From positions 128,001 through 192,000 of IMG/VR virus record IMGVR_UViG_3300026549_000030: DNA of 64,000 nt; one strand, given 5' to 3'. How positions within the stretch are numbered: the first letter of the stretch is position 1; every line of letters starts with the position of its first letter. Source of the stretch: a virus (Duplodnaviria > Caudoviricetes). Below are positions 13,850 through 52,764 of the stretch, in pieces. Below the pieces are notes generated by a model. It did not search any database, had not been told where the DNA came from, and saw only the letters and a program-made list of their open reading frames with translations. The position numbers were made by a program, and so were the translations under genes.

Positions 13850-14754
13850 TATTCTGATAATGTGTGGTATAATTTTGAAAGATTAAGAACATCCTCAGTA
13901 AGTGTACCTTCTGAAAAAGCTTTTCCTTCAAGCTGTTGCTTCATTGCACTAAGGCGTGACTTTTCAGCGACGTCCTCGCGTTCACTAAGTATTTCATCAA
14001 TCTTATTAACGCAATCGCTCTTATATCTCTCGAAAAGTTCTTCTCTGCTGCCCTTTGAAAGATTTGTTGAAACAATATCCCAAATAGCTTTATTTTCCCA
14101 AGGCTCGAGTTCACTCTCATTAAGCGTAGAAACAAGTTCCTCTGATAAATCCTTTACGCCCTTATCGGTTTCTTCAGCTTTCTCAGGAACATTTGAGCAA
14201 ACGTGTTCTTTCAAGATAGAAAGCTTGTTGACGTGCTCGTAGATATTTTTTGCAGTCTTCTTATTTGTGATAAGATAATCAATTGCTGAGTTAACTTCCT
14301 TTGATTCTGAAACAATATTGTTAATCTGAGCGGCGTCCAAATTACCTTCAACAACGGCCTCAGCCACAATGTCTGAAAGTTTCTTCTTTCCCTCGTCGAG
14401 TTTCTTCTTATTGATATTGCTGGAAATTGAGAAAGTTTCAGAAAGGAAAAGATTCACGTCAGAGATATGTTCGGGTGAATTCACAATATGATAGATTGCG
14501 AACGCCTTACCGAGTTCTTTATTCTCCTTCAATGCCTTTACATATTTTCCGATAATCTTCTTTCCATTTTCCGAATCAAAAAGATTTACGGAAACAGACT
14601 CGAACAGAGAATTCAAGTCGCCAAGTGAAAGGTTGCTGAAATTTTCGATAGCTTCATTTAATTCTGCCTTCCTGATACGGTTTTCAAGAACGGAATTCAT
14701 TTCGTTCTTAAATTTTAACAAATCAGCACTTTTATCGAGATTGATATTTTTCAT
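13849..14754 (-). CDS. Helical head-assembly/core-like protein
   Basis: Directly downstream of portal, own TATTTATA motif, many LxE/IxE sites. Confidence 0.55.
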   Translation of the reverse strand: MKNINLDKSADLLKFKNEMNSVLENRIRKAELNEAIENFSNLSLGDLNSLFESVSVNLFDSENGKKIIGKYVKALKENKELGKAFAIYHIVNSPEHISDVNLFLSETFSISSNINKKKLDEGKKKLSDIVAEAVVEGNLDAAQINNIVSESKEVNSAIDYLITNKKTAKNIYEHVNKLSILKEHVCSNVPEKAEETDKGVKDLSEELVSTLNESELEPWENKAIWDIVSTNLSKGSREELFERYKSDCVNKIDEILSEREDVAEKSRLSAMKQQLEGKAFSEGTLTEDVLNLSKLYHTLSE

Positions 14755-14798: not shown

Positions 14799-16793
14799 TT
14801 ACAGGAGCTCTTTCTCATTCTGCTTATGCGTTTCTTCAAGTTTTTCAAGATCCTTGATAGCCATATTCAATTCTTCATTGATAAGGAAGTTTTTGTCGAG
14901 TAGCGCGACGCGCTCATTACTTATCTCTTCTGGGCTCTTACGCAGTCTCCTGATATAATTGTCTATATGCTCATAACCTGACTTCGCTTCCGCAAGTGGT
15001 GCTGAACCTTCTCCTCCTCCTTCTCCTCCGAGTGGAGTTGAAGCTTCCTCCCCACCGATTGAGCCCATATCATCAGCGCCCGGCTCGCCTAAGTCGCCAA
15101 GGTCGTCACCGAAGCCGCCGCCAATAGCAGGCGCACCGCCTCCGCCGCCTAAGCCGCCCATATCTTCCTGTCCAGGAATCTGCGGACTGTACTCTGCTCC
15201 GAGTTCCCCATAGATATTATCAACGTTGTCAAAGATATGCGTTCTCTTAATAATTTCAGGAGTGCGTTGAAGTTCAATAGCAACCGCTGCTTCAAGTCTC
15301 ATTTCGTCAAGTGTTTCAGCAATTTCAGAATCGCTCTTGCCCATAATGTCCCTCTGTACTTGGTGCCAAGACATAAGCGGAATTCCACCACCCTGTTCAG
15401 CGAGCGCCGCAGTAGCTGCATTGATTCTCTTAACCAAATTATCGAGTTCCATCATCTCGATTTGATTTGATGGATTATTTAGCGATAATGTGAAGTTGGT
15501 TAAATCGTCGTCATATCCCAAGATATGAAGGTGTATGATAGCAACCTTGTTGAGTTCCATAAGGACAGCCTGTTGAAGGCTGTTCACAGTACGGCTGAAC
15601 CTGATATCAAGGATTGAAAGGTTCTGCCCCTTACCCTGAGGCTCTTGGAAATTCAAATAAGACTTAGGAACACCCAATCCGCAAAGAACCTTATTCTCCA
15701 TGAAGTTGATATCATCCATAGATGTAATGTTCTGCGCTGAATTAAGGTTGTCGATAGACGTTGGATCCTGTCCAGGCCTTACAGGAATAACATAGTCAGC
15801 ACTAACATCAAGGAAATTCTTCCTCAAGTCAATCTGTCCCGTCTGAGGGTCAATAATAGGAGCCCTCTTAATGTTATTCATAAATTCCTGAAGGAATGCA
15901 GGAACGTCATTATCGTCAATTAAGCCGACATTTACCTTGAAAATCCTTCTTTCAACACTTCTTTCGAGACGATAGAGAAGCATTCCATCTTCCATCATAG
16001 AAAGCATTCTCCAATGCCTACGTGAGTGGTTCAACCAAGAAACGCCATATGGAAGATAAAGAGAATCATTAATAAGACGGAAGTGCGCAACCTGCCAACT
16101 CTTAAACGGAATCTGCTGATTGTGTCCTTCCCAAACAAATTTAACATCGTCAGGTTTAATGTTCTGTGTTACGCCGGCGGAAGCGTATGTTCCGGAATAT
16201 GCGTTAAGCATACCATTTTCCAAACGTGTAACCTCATGAACTGGAAGTTCTCTCCACCCAGTTACTCCGTTCTTTGCGTCAATGTTAAGGAACATAAATT
16301 CGTTACCGTATTTCGCGGTAGCACGCATAATAGTCTTACTCCAAAGATTGAAGTCAAGGCGGTTAATGAACAAATCTTCGAGTATCGCCTTAATTCTTGG
16401 GGATTTTGAATAGATATTCAGGATTTTTCCCTTTGAATTGATTGTGGTTGCCTCGTCAGAAACGATTGTCAATGCGCGTCCGATTTCAGGCCATGCGTCC
16501 ATTAAGTCCGCATCACGGTACATTACCTTGACTTGGCTCGCGCCAGCCATTTGTTCCATTGAGGTTTCGTAGCCAATCTTCTGCCATTGATAAGCAAGGA
16601 GGCGCTGCTGTTTCAATTCTTTCAGCTTAGCGTCCCTTTCAGCCTTGTCGTCGGTAGAGAAAATAACCTCAGAGCTTGGTGCGATATTGTATATTGCCGA
16701 TTTTGGTTGCTGAGCCGCCGTAGCAGGATATCCACGCGTTACTCCAATCATTACATCGGATAGTGTCTGTAGTCTGGTTCTTCTTTCAGCCAT
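14799..16793 (-). CDS. Portal protein (T4 gp20-like)
   Basis: WRMLSMMEDGMLLYRLERSVERRIFKVNVG and DIRFSRTVNSLQ are gp20-family motifs. Confidence 0.93.
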   Translation of the reverse strand: MAERRTRLQTLSDVMIGVTRGYPATAAQQPKSAIYNIAPSSEVIFSTDDKAERDAKLKELKQQRLLAYQWQKIGYETSMEQMAGASQVKVMYRDADLMDAWPEIGRALTIVSDEATTINSKGKILNIYSKSPRIKAILEDLFINRLDFNLWSKTIMRATAKYGNEFMFLNIDAKNGVTGWRELPVHEVTRLENGMLNAYSGTYASAGVTQNIKPDDVKFVWEGHNQQIPFKSWQVAHFRLINDSLYLPYGVSWLNHSRRHWRMLSMMEDGMLLYRLERSVERRIFKVNVGLIDDNDVPAFLQEFMNNIKRAPIIDPQTGQIDLRKNFLDVSADYVIPVRPGQDPTSIDNLNSAQNITSMDDINFMENKVLCGLGVPKSYLNFQEPQGKGQNLSILDIRFSRTVNSLQQAVLMELNKVAIIHLHILGYDDDLTNFTLSLNNPSNQIEMMELDNLVKRINAATAALAEQGGGIPLMSWHQVQRDIMGKSDSEIAETLDEMRLEAAVAIELQRTPEIIKRTHIFDNVDNIYGELGAEYSPQIPGQEDMGGLGGGGGAPAIGGGFGDDLGDLGEPGADDMGSIGGEEASTPLGGEGGGEGSAPLAEAKSGYEHIDNYIRRLRKSPEEISNERVALLDKNFLINEELNMAIKDLEKLEETHKQNEKELL

Positions 16794-25601: not shown

Positions 25602-27470
25602 TTAACGAAGCTCGTTGATATCCCAAGTCTGGAGTCCGTTTGCAACGATAGCGCCGTAGTAGCGGTTGTTAACCATCTTCTTAGCGTAACGAGTGATGAT
25701 ACCCTTAACAGGTGCGAAGTTAGCGCTGTTGTAGATAGTAGGAGTTAACTGCATAGGCACATAAGGTGCATAGATGTAACCTGTGTCGAGGAGGCTATCG
25801 CCCTTGTGTCCGATGATAGCGGACTCTGCAGGTGAATAAGGATCCACGAACACGTTGTAGCGGCCCTGGAGTGAACCAACCTTCTCAATACCCATTGAGT
25901 ATGTCACAGCCTCAGCGTTAGCGTCGGTTACGTGGAAGTACTCAAGGTCGTTGAGCATAGCGTTGATTTCGGTAGAAACAACCACGAAGTTTGCACCACC
26001 ACGAAGAGTTGACTTGTGAATCTGTGCAGAAATCTGATTGATCTTTGTCATGAAGGTCTGGTTCCAGTCCTTCTGAGTGTAGTTCGTTGAGAAACCACCC
26101 TGACGTCTCCAACCGTTGTAGTCCCACTTAAGCTGCCAAGGAGAAGCCTTGCGGAGGTCGCGGAGGATCTCACGGTCGATTTCAGCAGCAATCTGCTCTG
26201 AGAGGATAGCTGTAAGCTCAGCCTCAGCGTCGATGTTGTGGAATGCGGCAACGTCCTGAGCGAGTTCAGGAGACCATGTAGCACGGAGCTTGCGCTCGTC
26301 AACAGACACGGTAACATCTGAAAGCTTGAAGGAAACCTCACCGATTTCGGTTTCGAGCTCGAGAGAGTCATACTGTGCCCAAGCAACCATGAACTTGCTG
26401 TTCACGTCGTCAACGCTGATAGCGTCGCTTGCTACACCGATATAACCATCGAGAGTTGTTCCAGGAACCTTCACAGGTTTTGCAAGGTCGAGTTCAAGAT
26501 AAATCTTGCCTTCGGCGTCGCAAGGGTTGGAGTACTCCACTAAGCCCTTACCATAGCGCTGTGTAACGCAACGGAAGTGAACGGGCTCGCCCTTCTTGAA
26601 GCAAGCAAACTGGGTTTCGCCAGAAGCTGCAGCTTCGCCGATGTCTTCCTTAGCAACTACTCTAAGTGAAGCGAGGAATGACTCAGTGTCCATTTCGTTT
26701 CCGTCAGGACCTGTGAGCTTTGAAGCACGGAATGAAGAGAAACCGCTAACCTCAACGATAATGTTGCGGACGGAATCGTCAATACCGCATACAGGAAGAG
26801 TGTCAACATCCTTATAGTCGCCGTTGAAAGCAATGCGAACAGGCTTTACAGCACCAACGCGGATATGAACCTTACCCTTTGAATGATCGAAAAGACCATC
26901 ATTGTAGAAGAGGTCGTAAAGGCTCTTCTTGAAGAAGTGCACAACCTCAGGAGTATTACCAGACTCGTCGATATTTACAACCTCGTCAGGGAGATAGTAA
27001 CGCTGGCGAACTGCGCCGTCATAGTTACCTTCCTCGTCACGGTGGTTGCGCTCAACGCGGTCGTAACCCATAAGTCCGTAGTGAGAAGCAGTAGCTCCGT
27101 CAAGATTCTCCTTGTCGCCTTCGAACCTGCGCTCTGAAGTAACAGGAAGAATGAAGAAAAGTTTGCCGATAGGCATGTTCATAGCCTGAACGGACACGAT
27201 GTCGTTAGCAAGAAGACGTGAGAAAACACGACGTACTAACGGGAACACAACAGTCTCGAATGAACCGCTGTTGGATGCATCAGAAGCTTCCTTAAGAAGG
27301 ATGTGAGCTTCGTTCTCGAAAAGGGTAGCCATATTCTCTTTGAGATATCCGGTAAGACCCTTTGTGAAGCCGATGTTGTCCCAACGCTCCTGGATCATTT
27401 TGCGAGCCTCTTCATGTTTGCCAGTGGAAATGTTACCAACCTGGCCGCCTTGTAAGAAGTTTGATACCAT
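25602..27470 (-). CDS. Major capsid protein (T4 gp23-like)
   Basis: RKLRATWSPELAQDVAAFHNIDAEAELTAILSEQIAAEIDREI and GYIYAPYVP...RY are gp23 motifs. Confidence 0.96.
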   Translation of the reverse strand: MVSNFLQGGQVGNISTGKHEEARKMIQERWDNIGFTKGLTGYLKENMATLFENEAHILLKEASDASNSGSFETVVFPLVRRVFSRLLANDIVSVQAMNMPIGKLFFILPVTSERRFEGDKENLDGATASHYGLMGYDRVERNHRDEEGNYDGAVRQRYYLPDEVVNIDESGNTPEVVHFFKKSLYDLFYNDGLFDHSKGKVHIRVGAVKPVRIAFNGDYKDVDTLPVCGIDDSVRNIIVEVSGFSSFRASKLTGPDGNEMDTESFLASLRVVAKEDIGEAAASGETQFACFKKGEPVHFRCVTQRYGKGLVEYSNPCDAEGKIYLELDLAKPVKVPGTTLDGYIGVASDAISVDDVNSKFMVAWAQYDSLELETEIGEVSFKLSDVTVSVDERKLRATWSPELAQDVAAFHNIDAEAELTAILSEQIAAEIDREILRDLRKASPWQLKWDYNGWRRQGGFSTNYTQKDWNQTFMTKINQISAQIHKSTLRGGANFVVVSTEINAMLNDLEYFHVTDANAEAVTYSMGIEKVGSLQGRYNVFVDPYSPAESAIIGHKGDSLLDTGYIYAPYVPMQLTPTIYNSANFAPVKGIITRYAKKMVNNRYYGAIVANGLQTWDINELR

Positions 27471-27504: not shown

Positions 27505-28950
27505 TTACTTTTTAAAGAGATTGTCCATTCTGTTCATAAGGTCAATCGAAGGATCGTTGACGTTCTGATAAATGGTTGTCTCATTTAAATTTTTTGATTC
27601 AGCAACGAATTGCTTCTCAATTGCGGGTTTTGAATTTACGGATTCCTTAAGTTCTGACTTAATTGTCTCGTAAAGGTTCTTGCCCTCTGTGAGTGTCTTA
27701 ACAGCGTTGAAGCGCTCGCAGATTCTCTTCTTCTCGTCCTTGGTTGTTGTCTCATTCACAAGAATATCGACAAGCTTGCCCATATTGACGTTGAGAACAG
27801 CAGCCTCATACAGGCTCTTCTTAATCTTATTAATGCACTCAACATATTGTTTATTTTCGGCCTGAATAGCCTTTGCCTTTGCGACAATCTTAGTTACAGA
27901 TTCGCGGAGAGCCTTGTACTCACCATCCTCAGATGACTGATGCTGGTTCTGTGCACCACGATTAATGTGGTTTGTGCTCTTCTTGTTAGCGTGCTTAGTG
28001 TTAAGTCCGCTTCCGTCCTCTTCAAGATTTGCATCAAGATTTGGATTAGCAGGCTCGTTTCCACAAGCTGCGCCACACTCGTTGACTGACTTCTCGAATG
28101 GCTTGCTGTCGCCCTTTCCTGCCCATGGTTTCTCAGAGCCCTTAGGTGCGCCTTCATCCCAATCGTTAGTAGTCTTTGAATCGGCAGGCTCGTTCATATT
28201 GAACTTCTTGTCGAATACGTCCTTCTGATAAGAGTCAGTGTAACCGAGGTTTTCCTCGTTAAGCTCTTCCTCATTGTCATCATTAAGGTCGATTTCGATA
28301 TCGCCGTCCTCATCTCCGCCAAGATTAATGTCAATGTCGTCGTCTCCGGCTTCGCCCTCAATGTCAACATCTTCACCACCGTCTACATCTGCGGTATCAT
28401 CGCTTCCGGCTTCGCCACCCAGTGCATCAGGATCAAGTTCAATCACGAATTCGGCGCCAGTCTCGTCATCCTTCACAGAATAAGTTCCGTCATCTTCCTT
28501 CTTTACGAAGATTTGGTCGTCATCCCCGAGTTTGTTGTAGACTTTGAGAATTTCATCTCCATCCACGCCCGTGAAATCATAATCATTGTCACCAACCTTG
28601 TACTGTTCAAAATCTGACCATTCATCGTCATCGGCATTGCCCTCATCAGAGCCTTCCTCGCCTTCCTGTGAGAAATCCTCTTCGCCTGCTCCCTCTTCGG
28701 GTGCCTCGGCGTCGTTATCCTCACCGCCTTCATTGTCAGTTACTGCAGGAACATCCTCGGTATTGACATCCTCTACGCTATAACCGTCTTCCTGTTCCTC
28801 TTCCTCGCTATGGTCTTCCTCTTCCATCACCAAATTGGCGATAGTTTCGTTTACGATAGCACGAAGAGACTTCTCGGTGCCTTCCTGTAATGCCTTTGTA
28901 ATCTTCTCGGCATCACGGATAGTTTTTTCAGCCGTATTATTTTTTTTCAT
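27505..28950 (-). CDS. Prohead scaffold/core protein (gp22-like position)
   Basis: Very acidic, C-terminal coiled coil, located between protease and capsid genes, many LxE sites. Confidence 0.8.
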   Translation of the reverse strand: MKKNNTAEKTIRDAEKITKALQEGTEKSLRAIVNETIANLVMEEEDHSEEEEQEDGYSVEDVNTEDVPAVTDNEGGEDNDAEAPEEGAGEEDFSQEGEEGSDEGNADDDEWSDFEQYKVGDNDYDFTGVDGDEILKVYNKLGDDDQIFVKKEDDGTYSVKDDETGAEFVIELDPDALGGEAGSDDTADVDGGEDVDIEGEAGDDDIDINLGGDEDGDIEIDLNDDNEEELNEENLGYTDSYQKDVFDKKFNMNEPADSKTTNDWDEGAPKGSEKPWAGKGDSKPFEKSVNECGAACGNEPANPNLDANLEEDGSGLNTKHANKKSTNHINRGAQNQHQSSEDGEYKALRESVTKIVAKAKAIQAENKQYVECINKIKKSLYEAAVLNVNMGKLVDILVNETTTKDEKKRICERFNAVKTLTEGKNLYETIKSELKESVNSKPAIEKQFVAESKNLNETTIYQNVNDPSIDLMNRMDNLFKK

Positions 28951-29062: not shown

Positions 29063-29776
29063 TTAGTCGTTAAGATGAAGCCATTCATCAAATTCTGAGA
29101 ATTTATCTTCCTTAATAAGAGTTCCTTCCTTCTTTTCAGACTCAATGTATGGACGTAATTTCTCAGGATTTTCTTCAATCCAAGCCTGCGGAGTTGAAGG
29201 CTGACTAACTGCGTCCCAACACACAATATCGTAGTCGTCACCAACAATGAGACTTCCCATTTGCTGCGTAACACTTCCAAGCCCGCGAGAAGAAACGCCA
29301 ACCTTCAATCCAGAAAGTAACCACTGAGCGAGGATATCCGCACAAGTGTAGACTCCACCGTGGTCTCTGAATCCGTCAGAGATTGGAATTTCCATTTTAC
29401 CAACAAGGGTATGTCCTTCCCAATGGAGTTCTATGATATTAAGTGCGATTCGACTAAGGTCTATTGCGCTGCTTTCGGGGTGGTTTAACTCACCGTATGC
29501 ACGCCTCTCAGCTATTGCCGTTTGATATTTTTCAACCTCTCTCTTGAGAACGTTCTCAGGATATATACGTCCGTTAGCATTTTCAATTCCGAACTTTTGG
29601 AAAACAGCGGAAACAACAAATGGATTCGGGAGTACGCGTCTTGATGTAGCGTCCCCTGCGTTAATCGCTTCCATTATAGGCCTGTTAGCCTCCGAGTTCA
29701 TCGACACATATCCGTCATTCTCAATCAGAAGCCCGGTTCCTACTTGTCCTTTCTTAATTTCTGTTATCACATTCAT
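29063..29776 (-). CDS. Prohead core protease (T4 gp21-like, S77 family)
   Basis: NANGRIYP, GELNHP, GVSSRGLGS and WDAVSQPS motifs. Confidence 0.93.
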   Translation of the reverse strand: MNVITEIKKGQVGTGLLIENDGYVSMNSEANRPIMEAINAGDATSRRVLPNPFVVSAVFQKFGIENANGRIYPENVLKREVEKYQTAIAERRAYGELNHPESSAIDLSRIALNIIELHWEGHTLVGKMEIPISDGFRDHGGVYTCADILAQWLLSGLKVGVSSRGLGSVTQQMGSLIVGDDYDIVCWDAVSQPSTPQAWIEENPEKLRPYIESEKKEGTLIKEDKFSEFDEWLHLND

Positions 29777-29850
29777 TGTGAAAATTGCATTTTTGTTCAG
29801 AATATAAATACCTGATTAAAAAAGAAAAGTGTATATTTATATAGTTGAAT

Positions 29851-30066: not shown

Positions 30067-31685
30067 AATATCGACAGTAGGCTTTTCATACTCTTTGTCT
30101 TTGGGTGTCCTACTGTTTTTTTCACCATTGGCTTATATTTTGGCTTAGGCTTGAACTCAGCACTCATAAGCGTAGAGTTGTCAAGGACTATACTTGCATC
30201 CGTCTTTAGTGTATTGTTGTCGCTCGTAATCGGCTGCGTTGATAATGGCTTATGCACAGTAGAGACAAAAGGACGTTTATCAGCAATCGTACCTCTTTTG
30301 ACATGCTTTGTGCTAAGCCAGTTAAAGTAATCGCTCTTATATGTTGTCTTTGATAGATATTTGAATTTCTCACCACCATTTTTCCACAGAGCATAATTGA
30401 ACGATAATTGATCCCTATGACTGCCAACCAACAATTCAGACCACCAATCCTCCATTAACTTTATGCATACAGGGTCATTATGCTTGCGAAGCATAATGTT
30501 TGTCTGAACAAGCCCGTAGTCGGAAGGGAAACCCTCTTTCTTATATCTTTCCATTTGTGGATCAATATTTGCCGCTACGTCTTTCTTCATTCTCTTACAT
30601 ATTTCGGCTTCCCTATAAATGCATTTTCTTTGAGGGTGTTCAGGAATGAATACAACGTCGTCAGTATTGCATTCTTTTTCTATAAATTTGTTTATGTCGC
30701 CACGAATATCGACAACGCCGTCAACCCATAATGAAACCTCATACTCTGGAAGAACCTTATGCGCGTTGATTTTAACATATCGCTGCTGTTTAACTCTTGA
30801 TAAATCTTTTACCTCCAGCGGCATCTTACGAATTTCCCATATTCCTCCGCCGTTTAAATTTTCATCATCAGTAAAGCAAACATAGTCGAAATTAGGCTCT
30901 ACCTTTATATTAGTTAACAGGTTATCGTATCCACCCGTTATGCACGTGTAGACTACGTTCTTATTAACACCATCCTCTCCCCATGTTTTTTTATACCTAT
31001 TAAGCCATTCTTCCGGATTATATTCGTGCTTATTATGGATTGTTTCTTTTTCCTTTATCCAACTTCCACCGGAATAGTGTGTAACATATTTCTCAGACTT
31101 AATTTCTCTGTGCCTTAATTTAACACAGTCAAGATAGAACGATGCGCCCGTATCGAATCTATCTCCATTTCCGCCGAGCCCATGCATTTTGTTTTCATTG
31201 AAATAGTGTGCATTGTTGGCTTTGCAAATCTTCGTGTTTATAAAACATATATAAGGTAGAACCCTCTTTATCGTGGAACGTGGCTGAACAATGACTTCTC
31301 CTACGTACGCGCAGGATAAATCATACAAGTCAGAAACGTCGCCCAATAATAGTACATCGCTATCAAGAAGGATGAATGGCTCATTGTTCATTTCCATAAA
31401 CTTCTCAACAGAATAACAATGCTTAGCGCTGCCCCATCTGTTTAATTTTCCTGGGGATTTTAATCTTGAAGGATATTTCTGTAACCACTTATCAAAATCA
31501 ATAATTTGTCCATTGGTGTTGTCTATGTACACGAGATTATCACACCTATAGACAAACGGCTCCTTATCGCTGTTATCGAAAACATATATCTTAGAGTTCG
31601 GCGTAAATTTATTTACGCTCTTAACAAGACATTCTGTTAACAGCGGCGTATTATAATGTACAATTAGAAAATTAACCTTGTCCAT
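30063..31685 (-). CDS. Two-domain glycosyltransferase (GT2-like + DUF616-like)
   Basis: FLIVHYNT...FDNSD...LLDSDV, then [11 protein letters not shown]...YVCFTDD...HPQRKCIY...RDQLSFNY. Confidence 0.75.
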
Positions 31686-32847
31686 TTAACTCTTCCTCCG
31701 TGAAATACTCATCTTCAATTATGCCCCTCTCAGATTGCTTTTGACGAATATCATATTCGAAAGAAGAATAATCATCTTCGTATTTAGACTTTTCAACAAG
31801 TTTTGACAGTTCTTCCCTTCCAAGTTTTGTCCTGACAAACACTTCCCGTAATAATTCATTAAATTCATTATCTGGGAGTGAACATAAATTCATAATAAAT
31901 GTTGGAAGAACCTTTGTATCCCCTGAGACTGTATCAGAAATATAATCCCAAAGAACAGGACCTAGACGTGAGTACCAAGGGTCGTTCACAATGGCGTCAG
32001 CCTTGTTAATTGCAGCTTCTGCGCGTGAAATGTCGTCAGGTAATCCATGAGAAGCCCATAGTTCTAAGCAGCCACGAAGAATTTCTATAATAAGAATCGG
32101 CGCTATTACGGCGTGAGCCTCAATCCTCGGAGGAGTAACATCATTTCCGAGCATAACATTCACGTATCCGCCCTGTTTATGTGAATTATCTTCAATTTTG
32201 AATGGCTGAGCAAAGATAAGATAATCGTTTATTTTTATTATCTTGCTGTAAAGGTGTGGAAGCTCCTCGTCAAGTTCGAATATTGCACTAAGACTGTTCT
32301 TGAGCGCAACTTCAGCAAGACGCATTGCGCCGCCGACAATCAGCGCATCCGTTACTATTCTTTTATTCGTATCAGAATCTTCCGCCTCAATAGCGGCATA
32401 ATTTTCATATTCAAAATTTTCGTCCGTATCTGGCTCAATATGGAATTGCGTCCTGCTTGAAATTTCAGGAACAAGCTCACATTCAAATTCAACCCCGTCC
32501 CGTGGGATATCAAATAGCTCGATAACGGAGTTCATACAAATTTTTTCAAGTTGGTCACGAAGATTCTCTTCTTTTCTTAAACATTGCGCATAAAGCTTGT
32601 TCAGCTTTGTCATAACTTCCTTGTTATCATAAGAAGCTATGTCGTCAGAAAAAACATCTTTAACCTCGTTGAATCTTTTTCCAAGAACGTCAAGAATAAG
32701 CCCATCGTTCGGGAAACACGGATTACCGTTAAATGGCGTTTTACCACACTTTACATCGCTAAATAGGTGCGAAGGAATTTGTACCCTTGCACCTAGTGCC
32801 TCATTTATAATCCGTTGTTGTTTCTCGGTTACGATTACTCTTTTCAT
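31672..32847 (-). CDS. Tagged putative internal head protein, unknown function
   Basis: Start ATG 32847, MKRVIVTEKQQRIINE. Confidence 0.65.
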   Translation of the reverse strand: MKRVIVTEKQQRIINEALGARVQIPSHLFSDVKCGKTPFNGNPCFPNDGLILDVLGKRFNEVKDVFSDDIASYDNKEVMTKLNKLYAQCLRKEENLRDQLEKICMNSVIELFDIPRDGVEFECELVPEISSRTQFHIEPDTDENFEYENYAAIEAEDSDTNKRIVTDALIVGGAMRLAEVALKNSLSAIFELDEELPHLYSKIIKINDYLIFAQPFKIEDNSHKQGGYVNVMLGNDVTPPRIEAHAVIAPILIIEILRGCLELWASHGLPDDISRAEAAINKADAIVNDPWYSRLGPVLWDYISDTVSGDTKVLPTFIMNLCSLPDNEFNELLREVFVRTKLGREELSKLVEKSKYEDDYSSFEYDIRQKQSERGIIEDEYFTEEELNGQG

Positions 32848-32849
32848 AA

Positions 32850-33152
32850 TTAACGAATGTCGCCCTTCTTGAAAACAGTGCAATTCTTTTTGAGGTTGGC
32901 TAATTTTGCCTCCTGAATTTGTTTCTTTGTAACAAATTTTCCCTCAGTCAGGTCAGCGCCATCAACGCTTAATTTCACATTCGTACCGCTTCCAACCTTA
33001 GAGACGATGTTGTTGTACTGAGTTTTGAGTCCCGCCGTACTGACAGTTCCATTAGCGTCTGGCTGAGCGTCAACGGTAAGCTCGTTGCTCTGCTCCGTAA
33101 TTCTTTCTTTTAACTGAGCCAACTGCTCTTCTGTAATGTGTATGCTTTTCAT
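32850..33152 (-). CDS. Tagged small putative internal head protein
   Basis: MKSIHITEEQLAQLKERITE. Confidence 0.65.
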   Translation of the reverse strand: MKSIHITEEQLAQLKERITEQSNELTVDAQPDANGTVSTAGLKTQYNNIVSKVGSGTNVKLSVDGADLTEGKFVTKKQIQEAKLANLKKNCTVFKKGDIR

Positions 33153-33157
33153 TTCTG

Positions 33158-33886
33158 TTACTTTTTACTTCCGTTAATTTGTGTTTTACCCTTCCAAGCT
33201 TTCGGGGTTTCCTTCGGGACTTTCTTATCGCTCACTTCCTTAGGACGTTTCTCGTCAGTGCAAGCGTTCATAAGTTCCATAAGAGATTTCTTCGTATACT
33301 TCTCCTCATTAACGGGCTGCTGCATATCCATAGGCTTATCGTCCATAGGAATTTCTTCGTCACCGACAGTTGGCTCTTCTACTGGCTCTTCCTCTGTTTC
33401 GTCCGATGAAGCGGAATTTATTTTCTCAATCAATTCCTTCTTAGCCTTTTCATCAAGATTCTTGCAAGCCGCTGAAATTATCATACTTGCAACATATTTT
33501 GATAATCCTGCGTCAGGGCCCTGTTCATTATTGAATGAATTGAGGGACTGAGAAAGCTTCCCTGTCAATTGCTGAATGTAATGCTTAGGGTCCGTTTCCT
33601 CGTCAGCCTCAACACCTGCGTCAAAATTCGTATCGAACTGATTGCTTGCTCCATCGTCAGTCATTTGTGCATTCGGATCCATTGAAGGATCGATAGGAAC
33701 GCCCGCAGGGTCTCCCGTTGGGCCCGTAGGTCCCATTGGCACTGCTGCCGTCATAGGGTTTTCCTCAGGCATTGGAGGCATAGACGATTGTGCGTTACCA
33801 ACCTTGATAACCTTCCTGTTCTCTCTCAGAACTTTGTCTATGATAGAGAGAATTTGCCCCTCCTTTATCTGTATCTTTTCGCTCAT
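33158..33886 (-). CDS. Tagged acidic/Pro-rich putative head core protein
   Basis: MSEKIQIKEGQILSIIDKVLRE; TATTTATT upstream. Confidence 0.65.
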   Translation of the reverse strand: MSEKIQIKEGQILSIIDKVLRENRKVIKVGNAQSSMPPMPEENPMTAAVPMGPTGPTGDPAGVPIDPSMDPNAQMTDDGASNQFDTNFDAGVEADEETDPKHYIQQLTGKLSQSLNSFNNEQGPDAGLSKYVASMIISAACKNLDEKAKKELIEKINSASSDETEEEPVEEPTVGDEEIPMDDKPMDMQQPVNEEKYTKKSLMELMNACTDEKRPKEVSDKKVPKETPKAWKGKTQINGSKK

Positions 33887-33932
33887 ACTATATTAACAAT
33901 ATACTATTCTCCAATAAATACAACCAAAAAAG

Positions 33933-33955
33933 AAAAAAGCCGCACGAATGCGGCT
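33933..33955 (-). terminator. Intrinsic terminator
   Basis: AGCCGCA-CGAA-TGCGGCT with a T tract on the minus strand. Confidence 0.75.
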
Positions 33956-33980
33956 CATTTTCAGTATTGTTTAAGTTAGA

Positions 33981-35576
33981 TTAGTTCTTCTTAAGAGACT
34001 CTTTAAGCTGTGAAAGAACCTTGTCTGTCAGGTTGCTTACGAGCTCGTCGAAAGGCTTTCCGTCGCCGATTTTCTGTCCGTAAGGCTGCTCACCCTTTGC
34101 AGACTCGTCGTTCCAGTCTTTCTTTGCTGTTCCTGCAAGAACCTCCTTGTTGTCAGGAGTTGTCATAGGTTCCTTGCGGAAACGAGGGTGCTTTCCCCAA
34201 GCGTCAAGCTTAGTAACCTCTTCCCTGACAATCTTCTCGATAGCCTCTTCGAGGGTGAGAGTTTTCTTCGCGGGCTTCTTGCTTTCAGTTAACTTGCGAT
34301 ACACGTCCTTTGTGATTGATACGATAGCCTCGTTAAGTTTATCCCAAGACTGTGCAGGAAGCTTTTTCTCACCATTGTAACCATATTCGTAGTTCTTCAT
34401 GGTATCCTCGTCGCCCTGTTTTGTAGGCTCGTTTACGTTTCCGTCCTCTTCATTGATTCTCTTCCACTCTTCGCCCTTCTCGTCACCAACACCGTTATTG
34501 GTTCCATTGATAGGATTGTTCTCCTTGTCGAGAATAGCGTTGTCGCCAGTAATTGCGTCAGCATCCTTTGAACCTTCTACGAAATTCTTCTCAAATTCCT
34601 CGAGAAGCTCGTCGAATGATTGCTCAGGCTCATTGTCGATACCTGCAACGTCTCCGCCAACCTCTGTGTTGTCAAAATCAGAATCTGTAAGCTCTGCGCC
34701 TTCCTCTCCGCCAAGCTCAGGCTCGATTTCAGTTGAACCAAGCTCTTCTTCGCCTGTGCCGAAGTCGTCTGCATTAATGTCATCAACAGGAGTTTCCTCG
34801 CCTGCAGTAACGTCAAGAGTAGGGTCTAATTCGCAAAGTCCCTCGTTCATCTTAACAGCCTTTGCACCCTTAGGATCCTTGTCAGCAACACCGTCGCCTT
34901 CGAGGTCGTCGTGTGCGTCCTTGTAATCCTTATCAGAGCCGCTGTTAGCACTCTTCATCTTATCTGATTGAAGGTCTTCCTCAACGCCCTTAACGTCCTT
35001 GTTCTCGGTAGCACCCTCAACGGTTCCGTTGAACTTAGGGTCCTTGTCGAGCTTAGCCTCAGTCTTCTCTGTGAAAGGATCGTTGTTCTTCACAGTGTTG
35101 TCACCTGTTGACTTGCCCTTTGACTCAGGGTCGCAGATGCAGTTCTTTCCGATTGTGCAGGAATTCTCGAAAATCTGATTCATTCTGTCGATTTCCTTCC
35201 TTGCATCCTCGGTTAGCATAGCGAAAACCTTCTCGCTGCGGTTAACGTCAACGGTAGAAGTCTTCTCATGCTTGCCATAAGCCTCATTGAGTGACATAAG
35301 TTTGAACTCAAGCTGCTTAGTAGCCTTATTGTAATCGGTGAATTCGTTTTCCTTACGGTTATTGAAACCACCGATATAATCGTAAGACTCAGAGATATTT
35401 TCCTTACCAACCTCAGTTGTCTTAATGTAGTACTTGGTGCCTTCCTTAAGAATTCCGTACACCTTTCCGTCAGCGCCGTTTGCGTGATACTCTATGTTGC
35501 TGGAAACTTTCTTCTCAGGGGCTCTGTACTCCATGAGGAAATTCATTCTAGCTACCTGGTCTTCGTATTTTGCCAT
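33981..35576 (-). CDS. Acidic scaffold-like head protein
   Basis: Shares DW...G..P..KGD.KPF with the scaffold; many xNE/LxE sites; TATTTATA upstream. Confidence 0.6.
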   Translation of the reverse strand: MAKYEDQVARMNFLMEYRAPEKKVSSNIEYHANGADGKVYGILKEGTKYYIKTTEVGKENISESYDYIGGFNNRKENEFTDYNKATKQLEFKLMSLNEAYGKHEKTSTVDVNRSEKVFAMLTEDARKEIDRMNQIFENSCTIGKNCICDPESKGKSTGDNTVKNNDPFTEKTEAKLDKDPKFNGTVEGATENKDVKGVEEDLQSDKMKSANSGSDKDYKDAHDDLEGDGVADKDPKGAKAVKMNEGLCELDPTLDVTAGEETPVDDINADDFGTGEEELGSTEIEPELGGEEGAELTDSDFDNTEVGGDVAGIDNEPEQSFDELLEEFEKNFVEGSKDADAITGDNAILDKENNPINGTNNGVGDEKGEEWKRINEEDGNVNEPTKQGDEDTMKNYEYGYNGEKKLPAQSWDKLNEAIVSITKDVYRKLTESKKPAKKTLTLEEAIEKIVREEVTKLDAWGKHPRFRKEPMTTPDNKEVLAGTAKKDWNDESAKGEQPYGQKIGDGKPFDELVSNLTDKVLSQLKESLKKN

Positions 35577-35647
35577 ATTTTTTTATTTATTATCGTCGTT
35601 TATTTTTATATAAATACGCTTTGCTCGTCAAAAAACACTTATTGTGT

Positions 35648-36553
35648 TTATTTTATGGAATATATCTTATCGTAAGTTTTCGATTTAACGTCAGCAAGAC
35701 GCTCGATATAACGGAAACGCCTTAGGCACTTGAAGATTATATTGCCGACAGACATTTCTCCGCCCTTTTTGAGAGATTCCCTTCTCATTGATTTTATCTT
35801 ATCGAACAACGCCTTAGCTTTATTCGCAGTCTGTTCCGCATCGTACTCGCCGCTATCGTTGTCGCACTCGTCTTCAAGCTTTTCAATTGCCTTCATAAAT
35901 TTGAACACCTTTTCTTTAATAAGGAATTTATCAAGCTTGATAGCCTTTATATTGTCTGGTTCTGGTTCCTTTATCCATTCATTTCTTTCGAGAGAATAGA
36001 TACCGCTTGCAGCGTGTTCCTCATTGGTGTCCTGAACATAAACCTCCACAGGAAATCCGTAGATTTTCAAATTCTCGTGCTTTTCATTCCAAAGATTCTT
36101 CTTAGAATCAAAATAATCCTTTACAAAGTTAGTCCTATCATCAACTTTCTTGAAATCCATTAAAATATGAAGATCAAAATCAGAAAACTTACTCCAATTG
36201 TAATTTGCGAGACTTCCTGTCAAAATGATATCGTCCGGCTTCACCCAGTCAACCTCAAGAGAGGAAATGAAGTCGTCGGCAATATCGAGGAGGCGAAGTC
36301 GCACGCGTGAATTAAGTTTTCCGTTAACCCAAACCTTAGGGTGAAGTTGTTTCTGCGGCTTAAAGGAAGATAAATCGAAGCCGGGATTGAGTAAGTCCCT
36401 TTTCTTAAAAGAATACTCAACAGTCTCTTCCCTTTCAGGAATACTGTCTATATCTTCATAAATGACATGGCAATATTCACCAAGCCGCTCGCCCGTTAAT
36501 TTGTACTTAGGGCAGGCGGCTGCGTCGAAGATATTGCCATTCTTATTAGTCAT
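35648..36553 (-). CDS. Pol-beta-superfamily nucleotidyltransferase
   Basis: LTGSLANYNWSKFSDFDLHI (GS...DxD) and a third acidic residue in VEVYVQD. Confidence 0.8.
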   Translation of the reverse strand: MTNKNGNIFDAAACPKYKLTGERLGEYCHVIYEDIDSIPEREETVEYSFKKRDLLNPGFDLSSFKPQKQLHPKVWVNGKLNSRVRLRLLDIADDFISSLEVDWVKPDDIILTGSLANYNWSKFSDFDLHILMDFKKVDDRTNFVKDYFDSKKNLWNEKHENLKIYGFPVEVYVQDTNEEHAASGIYSLERNEWIKEPEPDNIKAIKLDKFLIKEKVFKFMKAIEKLEDECDNDSGEYDAEQTANKAKALFDKIKSMRRESLKKGGEMSVGNIIFKCLRRFRYIERLADVKSKTYDKIYSIK

Positions 36554-36936
36554 TAACTAAGAGTCTCAAGATATTTCCACTTATAAATCTTTGAAAGGAA
36601 ATCGTCGGTAACGTTGTAGATTCCGCCGTATCCGTGTTCACCACCAATGGAGTCAATGAACTTATTCACATCTTTCTCCAATTCGTCAAGAATACCACTT
36701 AGTTCAGAAGCCTCTGGGAGCATAGTCTTCAAATCTCCCTTACCAAACTTTTCCCCAAGTTTACCCATAACTACTTCGGCGAGTTCGTCCTCAAACTCGA
36801 GAACACCCTCGTCAATTTCATCAGTAAGGATATGCCTTGAATGGTTGTCTGTTGACCAGTGTAACTCTTTAAGAGTCTGGTGATATCCTTCCAAGCTTCT
36901 AAGAAGCTCCAACGCGTTTTCTTTTGTAAGTGCCAT
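36553..36936 (-). CDS. Ferritin/Dps-like four-helix-bundle protein
   Basis: LKELHW...RHILTDE...FEDELAE and final KYL pattern of Dps-like phage proteins. Confidence 0.65.
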   Translation of the reverse strand: MALTKENALELLRSLEGYHQTLKELHWSTDNHSRHILTDEIDEGVLEFEDELAEVVMGKLGEKFGKGDLKTMLPEASELSGILDELEKDVNKFIDSIGGEHGYGGIYNVTDDFLSKIYKWKYLETLS

Positions 36937-36942
36937 AATAAA

Positions 36943-37305
36943 TTAGTTTATAACGTAAATGACAGCCCTTTCACCCTCAGTATAAGGGTCTTCTGACTGA
37001 TATTTTCTCTGCACGATTTCAGCCCTCTTTCCGAACACTCTGATATCGTCGATAAGTTCGTCAAGATTAAGAGTTCCCTCTGTATTTCCGAATGCACCCG
37101 TTTTCTGGGTTATAAGGTAAAGCGTTCCACGCCCCGTTTTTGAAGGGCGCTGCTGTTTGATAATCCAACCGTTGCGTTCGATAACATCATTCACCGTAGG
37201 ATTCGGAATTTCCTTATCGGAAGGGACGTGTGCCATATAAAGCTTATTTAGAAGCCCTTCCCTCAATATTGTCTTAAATGCCTTTTCGTCAATCGTTATG
37301 TTCAT
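36943..37305 (-). CDS. Tagged hypothetical late protein
   Basis: Start ATG 37305, MNITIDEKAFKTILRE; TATTTATG upstream. Confidence 0.6.
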   Translation of the reverse strand: MNITIDEKAFKTILREGLLNKLYMAHVPSDKEIPNPTVNDVIERNGWIIKQQRPSKTGRGTLYLITQKTGAFGNTEGTLNLDELIDDIRVFGKRAEIVQRKYQSEDPYTEGERAVIYVIN

Positions 37306-37369
37306 AATGATACATTTTACTATCATAAATACATTTAAATTGCGAATAGTTGCGTATTTATTTGTGAAA

Positions 37370-38176
37370 ATGGCGAAACAGTATCCATACGTAAACTTTC
37401 ACGATTACACGTACTTAAACGCGAACGGCTATCTGCAGAAATTCAGGAATGCACTTGGCAGAAGTTACCTTGACCGTGCGACGCTTACAAAACTCTTGAA
37501 AGTTATCAACAAGGATTTCAAGTTAGTTGGCTTCATAGTCCCAGATTATAAGGGGAATTACGCGCTCTATAACAAGAATACGCTTAACAACCTACTCGGA
37601 ATTGACGAAACAGGATATGAGCATACAAAGCCCGAGCATAACAAATACCTACAAATCCTCGAAAGGTACCTTGAAAGATGGGAAGCTATGGATTTTGAGA
37701 AGGAAAGAACGGACTATGAGGAAGAGCCTGAGGAGGACGAAATGGAACGAGTTTCGCGTGAGCTAATAGATTACGACAATCTCAACGAGAACAAAATGGG
37801 AAGAAAAATTTACATAACCGAATCTCAGTATAATAGAATTATCAGTGAGGGAATCGAGGTAGCAAAATATTCCGTAGAGCCCGATAAGGTTAAAGTTGTT
37901 AAAGAATTCCTTGACAATAACTTTATTAAAGGCGGAATTGCTGCAATAGGGGAGGACGGATATCCTTCAACAACGCCAATCGTTGCTCTCAAGGGTACCG
38001 ACGGAAAACCAGCAAGGAACATGTCAGACAAGCAGGCATTCGAACTCCTCAAAGATAAATTTGGAAAGATATATTCAGATAAAATTCAAGCAAATAAATT
38101 CCTTGCTCAGATACTCAAGGATTGGTATTATGATAGAATCAGCAAACAAGGGTTGCTAAGCGTAAACAGATATTAA
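37370..38176 (+). CDS. Late protein with internal targeting tag (two-module fusion)
   Basis: Start ATG 37370; internal LNE-NKMGRKIYITESQYNRIISE; TATTTATT upstream. Confidence 0.65.
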   Translation: MAKQYPYVNFHDYTYLNANGYLQKFRNALGRSYLDRATLTKLLKVINKDFKLVGFIVPDYKGNYALYNKNTLNNLLGIDETGYEHTKPEHNKYLQILERYLERWEAMDFEKERTDYEEEPEEDEMERVSRELIDYDNLNENKMGRKIYITESQYNRIISEGIEVAKYSVEPDKVKVVKEFLDNNFIKGGIAAIGEDGYPSTTPIVALKGTDGKPARNMSDKQAFELLKDKFGKIYSDKIQANKFLAQILKDWYYDRISKQGLLSVNRY

Positions 38177-38203
38177 AAAACACGCTCGATTGAGCGTGTT
38201 TTT
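38175..38203. terminator. Bidirectional terminator
   Basis: A6-CACGCTC-GATT-GAGCGTG-T5. Confidence 0.85.
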
Positions 38204-49255: not shown

Positions 49256-51610
49256 TTATTTTTTGTTAGCAATTTCTCGAAGAATATCCTTTGCGTAATC
49301 CTCGTTACGTTTTTCTCGTAAAAATTGTCGGCACAAAGCCTTAAACTGTGCTTCGCTAAGATAAATTTTCCTTCCCGTATTTTTAGCAACCAAGTCCCTT
49401 GCCTTAGCTTTAATCTTATCAACAGTTTTGTTATCGCCCATTTCCTTATTAACTTTATATTTGTTTCTTAATGATTGTGAATATCCTGCTCTTTCAGAGG
49501 ATTGCCATCCGTTATACGGTGCACTTACAGCCTTTTTTTCGTTGCCGTTAAATGCGTCGGGCGTTTTGTTGTGGTCTCCCGTATCTCCTATTCCACTCAA
49601 ATATCTGGCAATCTTTCTATCGCCAGAATGGCGGTTAAGATTGGAATCCTTGCGAAGCGCAATAGCCATTCCATCATTGAATAGAATAGCATTGTCCGAG
49701 TCATTACTGTAAGGAGTGTCCTCAAATGGCTCACCGACAATCATATCGTCCGTAATTTCAGACGGATTTACGCTGTGTCCATATATGAATGCGCAAGGAA
49801 ACGTCCTAACACCGCCATTGTTTGAAATCTTTATTCCACCGTGTTCTTTCGCTAATTTAGCAAGTATGTTAGATGAAAAATCTTCGTTAATCATATCTTT
49901 ATTCCAGTTTTCAATATTTGATGGATCCCTTCTTTTCTTCAAATTTTTCAATGCTTTCCCAACATTAAAGCTTTCCCTTACAAACGGTACCGTCCCGTAA
50001 TATTTTCCGCATTTATCACAGATAAATACAGGTTCTCCATGTATTTGTACGCAAACATTTCCGCCGCATTCGCACTTCTCGGGAATTTCATTTCCCTCAT
50101 CGTTTTTTCTCCTTTTTGATTCCTGTAATGAGCCACCACCAGTAACTGTGCTGCAACTTTTCGAGCCGCCTTCTATGAAAGCAGAGGCAAGATTACCTCG
50201 GCAGTGCCCAACGTCCAACGCCCTGTCTATAAGCATAAGAATATCACCGGGCGACATATTTTCAGAAAACTCCTTTATAATGCTGTAAAGCGGAGTAAGC
50301 CCATAGTCACTCCAACCGTCACTTCCGTCAGGAAGCTTAGACCAATCATAAAAGCCCATGCTATCAAGCAGCTTCCATCCGTCCGAGTATCCCTCAACCT
50401 CCTTTCCGAGGACATACTCAACGTCTTCAGAAGGAAAATATGAACTGTGCCCCGCAAATTCGGTTATATATGAAATTGAAAGTGTGTTGTGGATTACAAT
50501 GTCAAACCATGACAAGACGGTATTCAACGGAATTCTTGCCATAGCAGGCTCTTGAAGAAATCTTTCACGGATATTCCTGTACTGCTCGAATGGAATAAGA
50601 TTCCACCTCTTCTGTGTAATCCCGTTTTCTTTGTCCCTGACAAATTCGCTAAGCAAATCGGCAGGCGAATAATCTTCCATCGCGCTATATAGACGGTCAG
50701 AAACCCCCTCATTAAGTCTATGTATTCTTGCAACCTGCCCCTCTTCAACATTTATCCACGCAATATCAGATGTTGGAAGCGTCTCTGAGAAAATTTTCCC
50801 TCCGCCTGCGTAATCCTTCGCGCACATTTTTGACGTTGTTATGAAATTTCCGTCAGTAATCGGCTTAGAACTGTAAACGGTTATCCTTCCAGTCTTTAAC
50901 GCGTCTTCGAGAACGGAGTTGGGAGTATCAGGGTAAGAGGAATATGTTCCGTATTCGTCAAAATCAGCTTTAGCCTCAGCCATTGCTTCCTCAAATGTCT
51001 TTATATCGTCAACCTTTCGTATCCCCGTATGATAATCGTCAAGCATTGGATTGGTATCATTAATGATACTAAGCTGCGTTTCCTTGTTCTCCGTGAGGCG
51101 GACGTACTTGGCAAATGGTTTTCTTTGGCGATACCCGTCATACAGCCATTTTTTGAATTTATCCAAATTAACTTCCGTTATGTATTTGAATCCTTTCCAA
51201 TCTTTTTCGTAATTAGAAAGATACGCTGCTTTTGCCTCTTCTGCCGTATTGAATCCGAGCATAACCTTCGTCTCGTCAAATTCATTTCCGTTGAACTGAT
51301 CAATAGGAAATACCTTTTCAGAGTTAAGGTTCGGTCCAAGGAAAACATCTATCGCGTCGCCATCCTTTCCAACCGTCTTGGTGAAATACCCATAATCGTT
51401 GTGCATAAGTGTTTTCCACTCGTGCCCGTTCTTATCTTTTCCGCGACGATAGCTCCCCTTCGGATTCTCAATTGTAATCTCAAATCCGAGAACACGGAAG
51501 TGCCCCTTCTTATAATTTCCAGCACGAATTTGTCCGAGTGTTGGATTTGTATCAACACTTCCGCGTGCAAGCTTTATATCATCTGTTATTGTTTCGTTTA
51601 TTTTTTGCAT
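49256..51610 (-). CDS. Multidomain polyvalent-type protein (InPase-like, ART-like, zinc ribbon, unknown domains) with C-terminal targeting tag
   Basis: GNYKKGH...ITIENPKGS.RRG...YGY..GKDGDAIDVFLG...FDETKVMLGF matches the polyvalent-protein inorganic-pyrophosphatase domain; CECGG...CDKCG; start ATG 51610. Confidence 0.7.
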   Translation of the reverse strand: MQKINETITDDIKLARGSVDTNPTLGQIRAGNYKKGHFRVLGFEITIENPKGSYRRGKDKNGHEWKTLMHNDYGYFTKTVGKDGDAIDVFLGPNLNSEKVFPIDQFNGNEFDETKVMLGFNTAEEAKAAYLSNYEKDWKGFKYITEVNLDKFKKWLYDGYRQRKPFAKYVRLTENKETQLSIINDTNPMLDDYHTGIRKVDDIKTFEEAMAEAKADFDEYGTYSSYPDTPNSVLEDALKTGRITVYSSKPITDGNFITTSKMCAKDYAGGGKIFSETLPTSDIAWINVEEGQVARIHRLNEGVSDRLYSAMEDYSPADLLSEFVRDKENGITQKRWNLIPFEQYRNIRERFLQEPAMARIPLNTVLSWFDIVIHNTLSISYITEFAGHSSYFPSEDVEYVLGKEVEGYSDGWKLLDSMGFYDWSKLPDGSDGWSDYGLTPLYSIIKEFSENMSPGDILMLIDRALDVGHCRGNLASAFIEGGSKSCSTVTGGGSLQESKRRKNDEGNEIPEKCECGGNVCVQIHGEPVFICDKCGKYYGTVPFVRESFNVGKALKNLKKRRDPSNIENWNKDMINEDFSSNILAKLAKEHGGIKISNNGGVRTFPCAFIYGHSVNPSEITDDMIVGEPFEDTPYSNDSDNAILFNDGMAIALRKDSNLNRHSGDRKIARYLSGIGDTGDHNKTPDAFNGNEKKAVSAPYNGWQSSERAGYSQSLRNKYKVNKEMGDNKTVDKIKAKARDLVAKNTGRKIYLSEAQFKALCRQFLREKRNEDYAKDILREIANKK

Positions 51611-51627
51611 TTTTATGCCGTCAAATA

Positions 51628-51639
51628 TATTTATAAATA
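51628..51639. promoter_or_regulatory. Palindromic pair of overlapping divergent late promoters
   Basis: TATTTATAAATA gives TATTTATA on both strands, between divergent genes starting at 51610 and 51671. Confidence 0.65.
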
Positions 51640-51670
51640 GTGTTTTATACATTAAAAATAGGCTTTTATA

Positions 51671-52477: not shown

Positions 52478-52764
52478 TAAAAATTTATTTGACAGAAGCT
52501 CAGTTAAACAACTATCTTAGAACGCTTTGCGAGGAAGAATATAATATCAAAAAGAAAATCGGCCCATTCGCAACACAAGAAGAAGCAGCCGCAGAACTTC
52601 ACAGGCTTAGGAAAGAAAACGGATTCTCTGACAATGACAGCTTCATTGAAGGAAATTATATTGTCCTATACATCGAAATGGACAGATTTGACGACGATTA
52701 CGTTGGAAACCTTTTAACTAATATAGATAAAAAATACGGAAAAGTTGCTGAAAGCCGCGATTAA
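52474..52764 (+). CDS. Tagged small putative internal head protein
   Basis: MIKIYLTEAQLNNYLRTLCEE. Confidence 0.65.
   Translation: MIKIYLTEAQLNNYLRTLCEEEYNIKKKIGPFATQEEAAAELHRLRKENGFSDNDSFIEGNYIVLYIEMDRFDDDYVGNLLTNIDKKYGKVAESRD

Follow-up and report, generated by a model that had tools for sequence, protein, structure and literature searches.

A gene on the minus strand of a 64,000-nucleotide stretch of phage DNA (the window; positions 128,001 to 192,000 of IMG/VR record IMGVR_UViG_3300026549_000030) encodes a multidomain protein (49256..51610; coordinates are those of the window unless stated otherwise) that is likely a capsid-cargo polyprotein, i.e. a chain that would be loaded into the head, cut at its joints by the Peptidase_S77 prohead protease of the same phage, and ejected as separate pieces together with the DNA. 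As a computational result the polyprotein reading is well supported, by a cleavage-type motif retained across shuffled architectures, the location of the sites in predicted linkers, an encoded protease, enrichment of the same triplet in a scaffold-like protein, a contrast between phages with and without Peptidase_S77, and stand-alone forms of individual modules. The steps beyond the presence of the motif and of an encoded protease are drawn by analogy with T4. The 241,996-bp record that contains the window represents a single uncultivated virus with an estimated completeness of 68%, a T4-related jumbo phage with a T4-type head module.

The longest open reading frame (ORF) at the locus spans 49256..51652 on the minus strand (798 amino acids), and residue numbers below are counted from its Met1 (residues 186-188 being 51089-51097). 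The database gene call (P0002) begins at Met15, yielding a protein of 784 amino acids (49256..51610). Met1, at 51652, was dropped as the start of the ORF since the gene call, the starts of homologues, and a promoter-like motif located between the two ATGs all favor Met15. All of the following segments are encoded on the minus strand. The protein opens with a six-residue N-terminal leader, MQKINE (51593..51610), which ends in I-N-E and, by comparison with homologue leaders, resembles a propeptide of the T4 capsid targeting sequence (CTS) type. Module A is an InPase domain (family I pyrophosphatase-like; residues 21-188, 51089..51592) ending in L-T-E (51089-51097), module B an unnamed alpha/beta domain (residues 189-315, 50708..51088) ending in L-N-E (50708-50716), module C a helical domain with a confidently predicted fold (residues 316-511, 50120..50707) ending in L-Q-E (50120-50128), and module D a CxC...CxxC zinc ribbon (residues 512-560, 49973..50119) ending in V-R-E (49973-49981). 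A basic mini-peptide, ALKNLKKRRDP..NIENW (residues 561-590, 49883..49972), has sites on both sides and ends in I-N-E (49883-49891). It is followed by module E, an unnamed domain (residues 591-757, 49382..49882), and by a C-terminal helix tag, GRKIYLSEAQFKALCRQFLRE KRNEDY... (residues 758-798, 49259..49381), which contains L-S-E, L-R-E, and L-R-E. The polypeptide combines at least two unrelated domains, with InPase accompanied by at least three other independently shuffling modules and the zinc ribbon.

The original prediction held that every domain boundary of this protein carries an [ILV]-x-E protease site, and the coordinates it gave for these sites were exact (LTE186-188, LNE313-315, LQE509-511, VRE558-560, and INE588-590). 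A total of 19 [ILV]xE sites occur in the protein compared to 9.9 +/- 2.7 in shuffled sequences (P = 0.0016); the seven picked in the prediction are set apart by breakpoints, structure, and conservation. The AlphaFold model has a mean predicted local distance difference test (pLDDT) score of 73.5, with values below 50 in segments 185-187, 312-318, 504-514, 557-590, 678-713, and 758-764. All five internal sites fell in linkers with pLDDT below 50, while the remaining [ILV]xE sites were located in folded parts or in terminal helices. The chance that 19 random sites would cover all four inter-domain linkers is approximately 0.003. In aligned homologues the sites at 313, 509, and 588 were conserved in 95-100% of sequences versus 12-74% for interior sites. 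Conservation of the site between modules A and B (A|B) was 51% column-wise versus 97% when window-based, the column-wise value being an under-count because of small indels. The claim of a site at every boundary stands for the five internal sites, but the boundary between module E and the tag (758-764) has no upstream site, and the only sites around it lie inside the tag (LSE765-767, LRE778-780, and LRE791-793).

Megablast of the polyprotein gene against GenBank phages returned zero matches, and in tblastn searches the InPase part alone produced matches, across many unrelated phages. A homologue set of approximately 240 proteins with many differing architectures was available, and breakpoints were taken from BLAST of 120 of these. 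The modules shuffle independently, order included, with breakpoints near residues 188-190, 310-315, 504-513, 556-560, and 566-590. Three-residue enrichment over whole homologues was uninformative, as conserved domain cores dominate, and tests on junction windows (the 15 residues past a module end), with random windows of the same proteins as control, were used instead. [LIMV]xE was present in 271 of 339 unique junction windows (80%) versus 23% of random windows, and the strict form [LIMV][NT]E[SNDGE] in 49% versus 4.7%. A logo of 325 unique junction contexts had Leu (62%) or Ile (23%) at P3, Asn (57%) or Thr (13%) at P2, Glu at P1, and Ser (39%) or Asn (17%) at P1', giving the consensus L/I-N-E followed by S/N. 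The search itself set no requirement at P2 or P1', and the motif therefore carries more information than a bare hydrophobic-x-Glu. L-N-E-S was considered as an N-x-S glycosylation sequon and this was ruled out, given that Ser occupies P1' in only 39% of contexts while P1 is always Glu and P3 is L/I/V/M.

The same motif recurs at the ends of leaders and in stand-alone genes. Among homologues in which InPase comes first, 99 of 125 unique leaders end in [LIMV]xE directly ahead of the domain; these leaders are mostly exactly 10 residues long (e.g. MKSLRDILRE|S and MDIFNKIINE|A), compared to six in this protein. A check for stand-alone tagged genes, suggested along with the original prediction, recovered InPase with an N-terminal tag, or with a C-terminal tag directly after L-T-E, and in a further stand-alone form the protein ends just past the cut site. 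A cut site within the joints would allow modules to be swapped as cassettes and would thereby account for the variety of architectures.

The helix of the C-terminal tag, KIYL[ST]EAQ[FL], is present on seven ORFs of this genome and is N-terminal in five. A loose tag pattern had 110 matches in the homologues versus 2 in shuffled sequences, and unique matches were distributed among N-terminal (40), internal (38), and C-terminal (21) positions, with [LIMV]xE within 20 residues after the tag in 80 of 99. In close relatives (e.g. P0003 and P0012) the tag is internal and another module follows it. It had been proposed that a single tag packages the whole chain. This is doubtful, as the tag of relatives can be N-terminal, internal, or C-terminal and this protein also has the MQKINE leader; on these sequence patterns, the tag appears to be a recurrent module-linked helix plus cut site and not simply a single terminal address label. 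Two adjacent genes start with tag-like leaders, namely the divergent Nudix hydrolase gene at 51671-52477 (MKKTITERQIKGAIENVILE) and a 96-amino-acid ORF at 52474-52764 (MIKIYLTEAQLNNYLRTLCE), and three adjacent genes therefore look like cargo.

The proposed processing enzyme is a prohead protease of the Peptidase_S77 (T4 gp21) family encoded at 29063..29776 on the minus strand (PF03420, E = 3.4e-24; 85.9 bits against a cut-off of 27) and present in one copy in the record. It lies with other head genes, including an acidic scaffold-like protein of 481 amino acids in the T4 gp22 position (27505..28950, minus strand), a major capsid protein of the Gp23 family (25602..27470, minus strand), and a T4-type gp20 portal (14799..16793, PF07230). 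The scaffold-like protein contains six [LIMV]-N-E sites versus 0.56 expected (P = 2.7e-5), the strongest enrichment among 286 ORFs, as expected if this triplet is the preferred site of the protease. Second in this ranking is another acidic protein (33981..35576), with five sites versus 0.62 expected. Judged by composition and site content, both acidic proteins (27505-28950 and 33981-35576) are candidate scaffold or core proteins that would be shredded by the protease. In the capsid protein, the site HILLKE59|ASDAS sits where propeptide removal is expected, and the stretch after Glu59 presumably resembles the start of mature T4 gp23. Strict junction-type motifs were also observed at residues 18 and 1150 of a 1156-amino-acid ORF outside the window (93724-97194 in genome coordinates), which looks as if it bears N- and C-terminal propeptides. 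A 2654-amino-acid ORF (30223..38187, likewise in genome coordinates) carries one strict junction-type motif, at residue 17.

A possible regulatory link between the polyprotein and head genes was found upstream of the gene. The palindrome TATTTATAAATA (51628..51639), located between Met15 and the divergent Nudix gene, gives TATAAATA on both strands, which we take to be the T4 late-promoter consensus. TATAAATA is found in 41 copies in the genome, of which 26 are intergenic, with intergenic sequence representing 7% of the genome. A minus-strand copy at 29834 precedes the protease gene by 58 nt, and further copies lie ahead of the gene 13849..14754 and of a divergent pair (10663/10671). The position of the motif at the polyprotein gene, together with the copy upstream of the protease, supports translation from Met15 and joint expression with head genes. 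A ClpB/Hsp104-like double AAA+ protein, full-length at 900 amino acids (45881-48583), is encoded convergently with the gene pair formed by the polyprotein and an EEP phosphatase.

The genomic setting and the composition of the joints also bear on a different explanation, in which the joints are structural linkers or micro-homology for module exchange within an uncut cytoplasmic late enzyme whose tag serves oligomerization or another interaction. Linkers rich in N, K, E, and S are common in low-GC phages; the pattern found here, however, exists at the peptide level (P3 L/I/V/M, invariant Glu at P1, variable P2) and not as one DNA word, and the motif occurs in only 23% of random windows drawn from the same proteins. 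The neighboring genes have nucleotide-handling functions (Nudix, EEP phosphatase, and methylase) and are not head genes, and the tag is internal as often as terminal, both of which fit an uncut enzyme. Against this stand the ten-residue leaders, which end in the same motif and resemble the T4 CTS, the enrichment of the same triplet in the scaffold-like protein beside the protease, and the virion or structural annotation, albeit annotation only, that InPase-domain proteins have received in several cultured phages. Taken with these observations, the linker or recombination explanation is quite unlikely.

To compare phages with and without the protease, InPase loci were collected from IMG/VR, whole records were searched for Peptidase_S77, and InPase ends were placed by tblastn coordinates. 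Among unique contexts, the junction window following InPase has a site in 7 of 8 for S77-positive records versus 10 of 38 for S77-negative records (Fisher P = 0.002), the latter matching the background rate. The S77-positive records were all jumbo phages or fragments of these, and in S77-negative phages InPase is found within proteins of >1100-2100 amino acids with Pro/Thr/Glu-rich linkers. Loci L008-L086, from S77-negative IMG/VR phages and proviruses of approximately 45-68 kb, have InPase in the middle of the protein (>1100 amino acids) and are without hydrophobic-x-Glu joints.

This contrast is relevant to whether a host protease or another phage peptidase, e.g. a zincin-like MPTase, cuts the joints. 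MPTase-PolyVal is the proposed processing enzyme of polyvalent proteins, in which it is embedded (Iyer et al. 2017, PMC5512222). No peptidase domain was detected in the polyprotein with Pfam, and PF18818 (MPTase-PolyVal) was not found in the record, which is only 68% complete. Furthermore, the motif fits the rule of the gp21 family and tracks the presence of S77. Cutting by an enzyme other than the prohead protease is accordingly judged highly improbable.

The rule in question is known from several head proteases. The T4 enzyme, gp21, cleaves after the Glu of L/I-x-E; scaffold proteins are fragmented by it at many sites, and packaged effectors are trimmed (PMC9026906). The diverged gp21 homologues of SPN3US and phiKZ use S/A-x-E with Ser favored at P1' (PMC10052503). 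T4 IPI-III and Alt (PMC9026906) share with the present system the Peptidase_S77 family and its rule of cutting after Glu in L/I-x-E, and their N-terminal leaders of approximately 10 residues ending in the motif have the format seen in the homologues; these non-structural effectors are placed in the core of the head and leave it together with the DNA, and Alt is trimmed at both ends. The T4 cargo differs in consisting of single units that lose terminal propeptides only, whereas here several modules are joined and the motif is present at all internal joints but one. The longer helix tag (KIYLTEAQF type) is absent from T4. Head and ejection proteins of phiKZ, 201phi2-1, and SPN3US, cut by gp175/gp245 (PMC10052503, PMC9026906), are similar in having a Glu-terminated three-residue motif with Ser favored at P1', more than one site in each substrate, and a large number of packaged proteins that are delivered into the host. 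They differ in that P3 is Ala or Ser, not Leu or Ile, and that the reported cuts remove and shred N-terminal propeptides and do not separate modules.

Several of these observations weigh against cutting at the internal joints. In SPN3US approximately 80% of head proteins are uncut and almost all cuts are removals of N-terminal propeptides (PMC10052503). The polyprotein gene is located outside the head gene cluster. The [ILV]xE motif is short, with 12 further copies in folded parts or in the tag, and specificity must therefore come from exposure. At A|B the site coincides with a helix break instead of a long loop, and residues 678-713, a further low-confidence stretch, contain none. The input alignment for AlphaFold consisted of pieces that stop at module borders, and this could in itself depress confidence at the joints. 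All S77-positive phages belong to a single broad clade and are few in number; the contrast with S77-negative lineages is confounded by this relatedness.

In keeping with part of this evidence, the protein may be packaged cargo from which the protease trims only the N-terminal leader and C-terminal tag, as in T4 Alt, leaving the internal joints uncut and the product a multidomain polyvalent protein both in the capsid and in the host. Documented cuts in retained head proteins of T4 and SPN3US nearly all remove terminal propeptides, the prevailing view of classical polyvalent proteins is that they are transferred as large chains (PMC5512222), and the A|B site at a helix break would be consistent with such an outcome. 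The internal sites are nevertheless found in the least ordered segments, where such proteases cut, and terminal trimming leaves unexplained both the conservation of internal L/I-N-E-S/N across shuffled architectures and the absence of the motif from InPase proteins of S77-negative phages. We consider trimming of the ends alone to be unlikely.

Under the capsid-cargo reading, the precursor would be synthesized late under the control of a TATAAATA promoter, a type also found ahead of the protease operon, and would be drawn into the scaffolding core by its N-terminal leader and/or C-terminal helix tag, as with the T4 CTS. The activated prohead protease would cut after Glu20, 188, 315, 511, 560, and 590, as well as within the tag. 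Leader, tag, and linker peptides would leave or remain as small peptides, and the folded pieces would stay with the DNA, namely InPase (approximately 19.6 kDa), module B (14 kDa), module C (22 kDa), the zinc ribbon (5.5 kDa), and a module E piece of approximately 19-21 kDa, depending on whether it keeps the first part of the tag. The pieces would be ejected into the host and would then act separately.

Predicted functions of the individual pieces were examined by profile and structure searches. The InPase assignment of the original prediction was confirmed by a match to PF18823 over residues 41-170 (E = 1.8e-51, 174 bits against a cut-off of 26.8), and Foldseek with the full-length model returned pyrophosphatases only, these being bacterial enzymes (best E = 4e-4, probability 1.00), in agreement with the OB-fold of family I inorganic pyrophosphatases. 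The metal-ligand motif D-x-D-x-x-D is present (DGDAIDV, residues 97-103), and the acidic columns E62, D97, D99, D102, D118, D126, and E127 are invariant in 46 sequences. InPase probably removes pyrophosphate or a nucleotide-derived signal in the host. The CxC...CxxC zinc ribbon was likewise borne out at residues 525-549, with the matching homologue module carrying PF03119.

The prediction had also described the region after InPase as an ART-PolyVal-like domain, a label that found no support for residues 189-312, which had no Pfam match at E<=1 and no PDB profile match. PF18760 (ART-PolyVal) compared directly to residues 186-320 gave no match at E<=1, and homologues with PF18760 carry it in another region (e.g. 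P0094, residues 106-293). A PDB profile search with the module B alignment yielded nothing meaningful. Leads for module B from the ESM Atlas, PARP (0.81) and Arr (0.80), were both sub-threshold and below the level to trust; the model of module B is itself of low confidence (pLDDT 50-70), with no PDB matches covering it. Module B contains the conserved motifs DDYHxGIR, ITVYSS, DYAGGG, and EGQ, and stand-alone viral versions of 88-155 amino acids are present in the ESM Atlas. Module C, widespread in relatives, has a conserved R-x5-H (RALDVGH) and LPDGSD.WSDYG, and HEPN chains appeared for it only among tied weak matches (VIA-align Z 3.7, Foldseek E 0.7). A separate model of residues 186-515 gave no PDB match at E<=0.001 and no VIA-align match above Z 4.4, and a search of the ESM Atlas with this model returned only unnamed viral clusters. 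Modules B and C were left unnamed because the structure searches with residues 186-515 gave no trusted match. The basic mini-peptide recurs as a unit in many homologues with cut motifs flanking both sides, and by analogy may be an internal peptide of the kind that T4 core proteins give rise to, retained in association with the DNA. A role in early host takeover or counter-defence is probable for modules B, C, and E and for the basic peptide.

The domain content of the protein invites comparison with the polyvalent proteins described by Iyer, Burroughs, Anand, de Souza, and Aravind (2017, PMC5512222). These have in common with the present protein InPase, a phage-only signature domain, several unrelated modules per chain, extensive shuffling, predicted delivery with the DNA, and an adjoining Nudix gene (InPase-Nudix linkage). 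A zincin-like MPTase embedded in the chain, or an assemblin-like peptidase at its C-terminus, is frequent in polyvalent proteins but not obligatory. The present protein lacks both, and its joints bear motifs for a trans-acting prohead protease instead. In size it is well below the >1100-2100-amino-acid InPase chains of S77-negative phages. In retroviral Gag-Pol and other viral polyproteins matured in the particle, a precursor is similarly loaded into the immature particle and cut by the protease of the particle, a resemblance in logic only, with no homology. Individually, the T4 CTS with gp21 processing, the polyvalent proteins, and the extensive proteolysis of giant phage heads are all known. 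What appears to be new is the separation of unrelated effector modules by sites for a trans-acting prohead protease that double as shuffling borders, a combination not found in the literature searched, in which no description of a polyprotein strategy for cargo enzymes of tailed dsDNA phages was found.

A general modular cargo grammar in T4-related jumbo phages is plausible, though it falls somewhat short of likely. Any small effector domain could be connected to others through L/I-N-E-S/N joints and equipped with leaders or helix tags, the protease would free a stoichiometric set of injected enzymes from a single precursor in the manner of a retroviral protease, and the joints would double as cassette borders driving rapid combinatorial evolution of the injected set. 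If this grammar is true, the protein described here would yield five or six independent effectors and a conserved basic peptide. If the joints are cut, the effectors packed in the capsids of large phages would be encoded as polyproteins, and the annotation of multidomain phage genes now called hypothetical should then list each as a set of small injected proteins whose ends can be predicted. Cutting of the joints would also answer, for phages with a gp21-type protease, how the domains of polyvalent proteins separate to reach different targets. Furthermore, the sequence rule (a leader or tag plus L/I-x-E joints) would predict the injected proteome of uncultivated jumbo phages, and the same rule would serve the engineering of cargo delivery in T4-type capsids.

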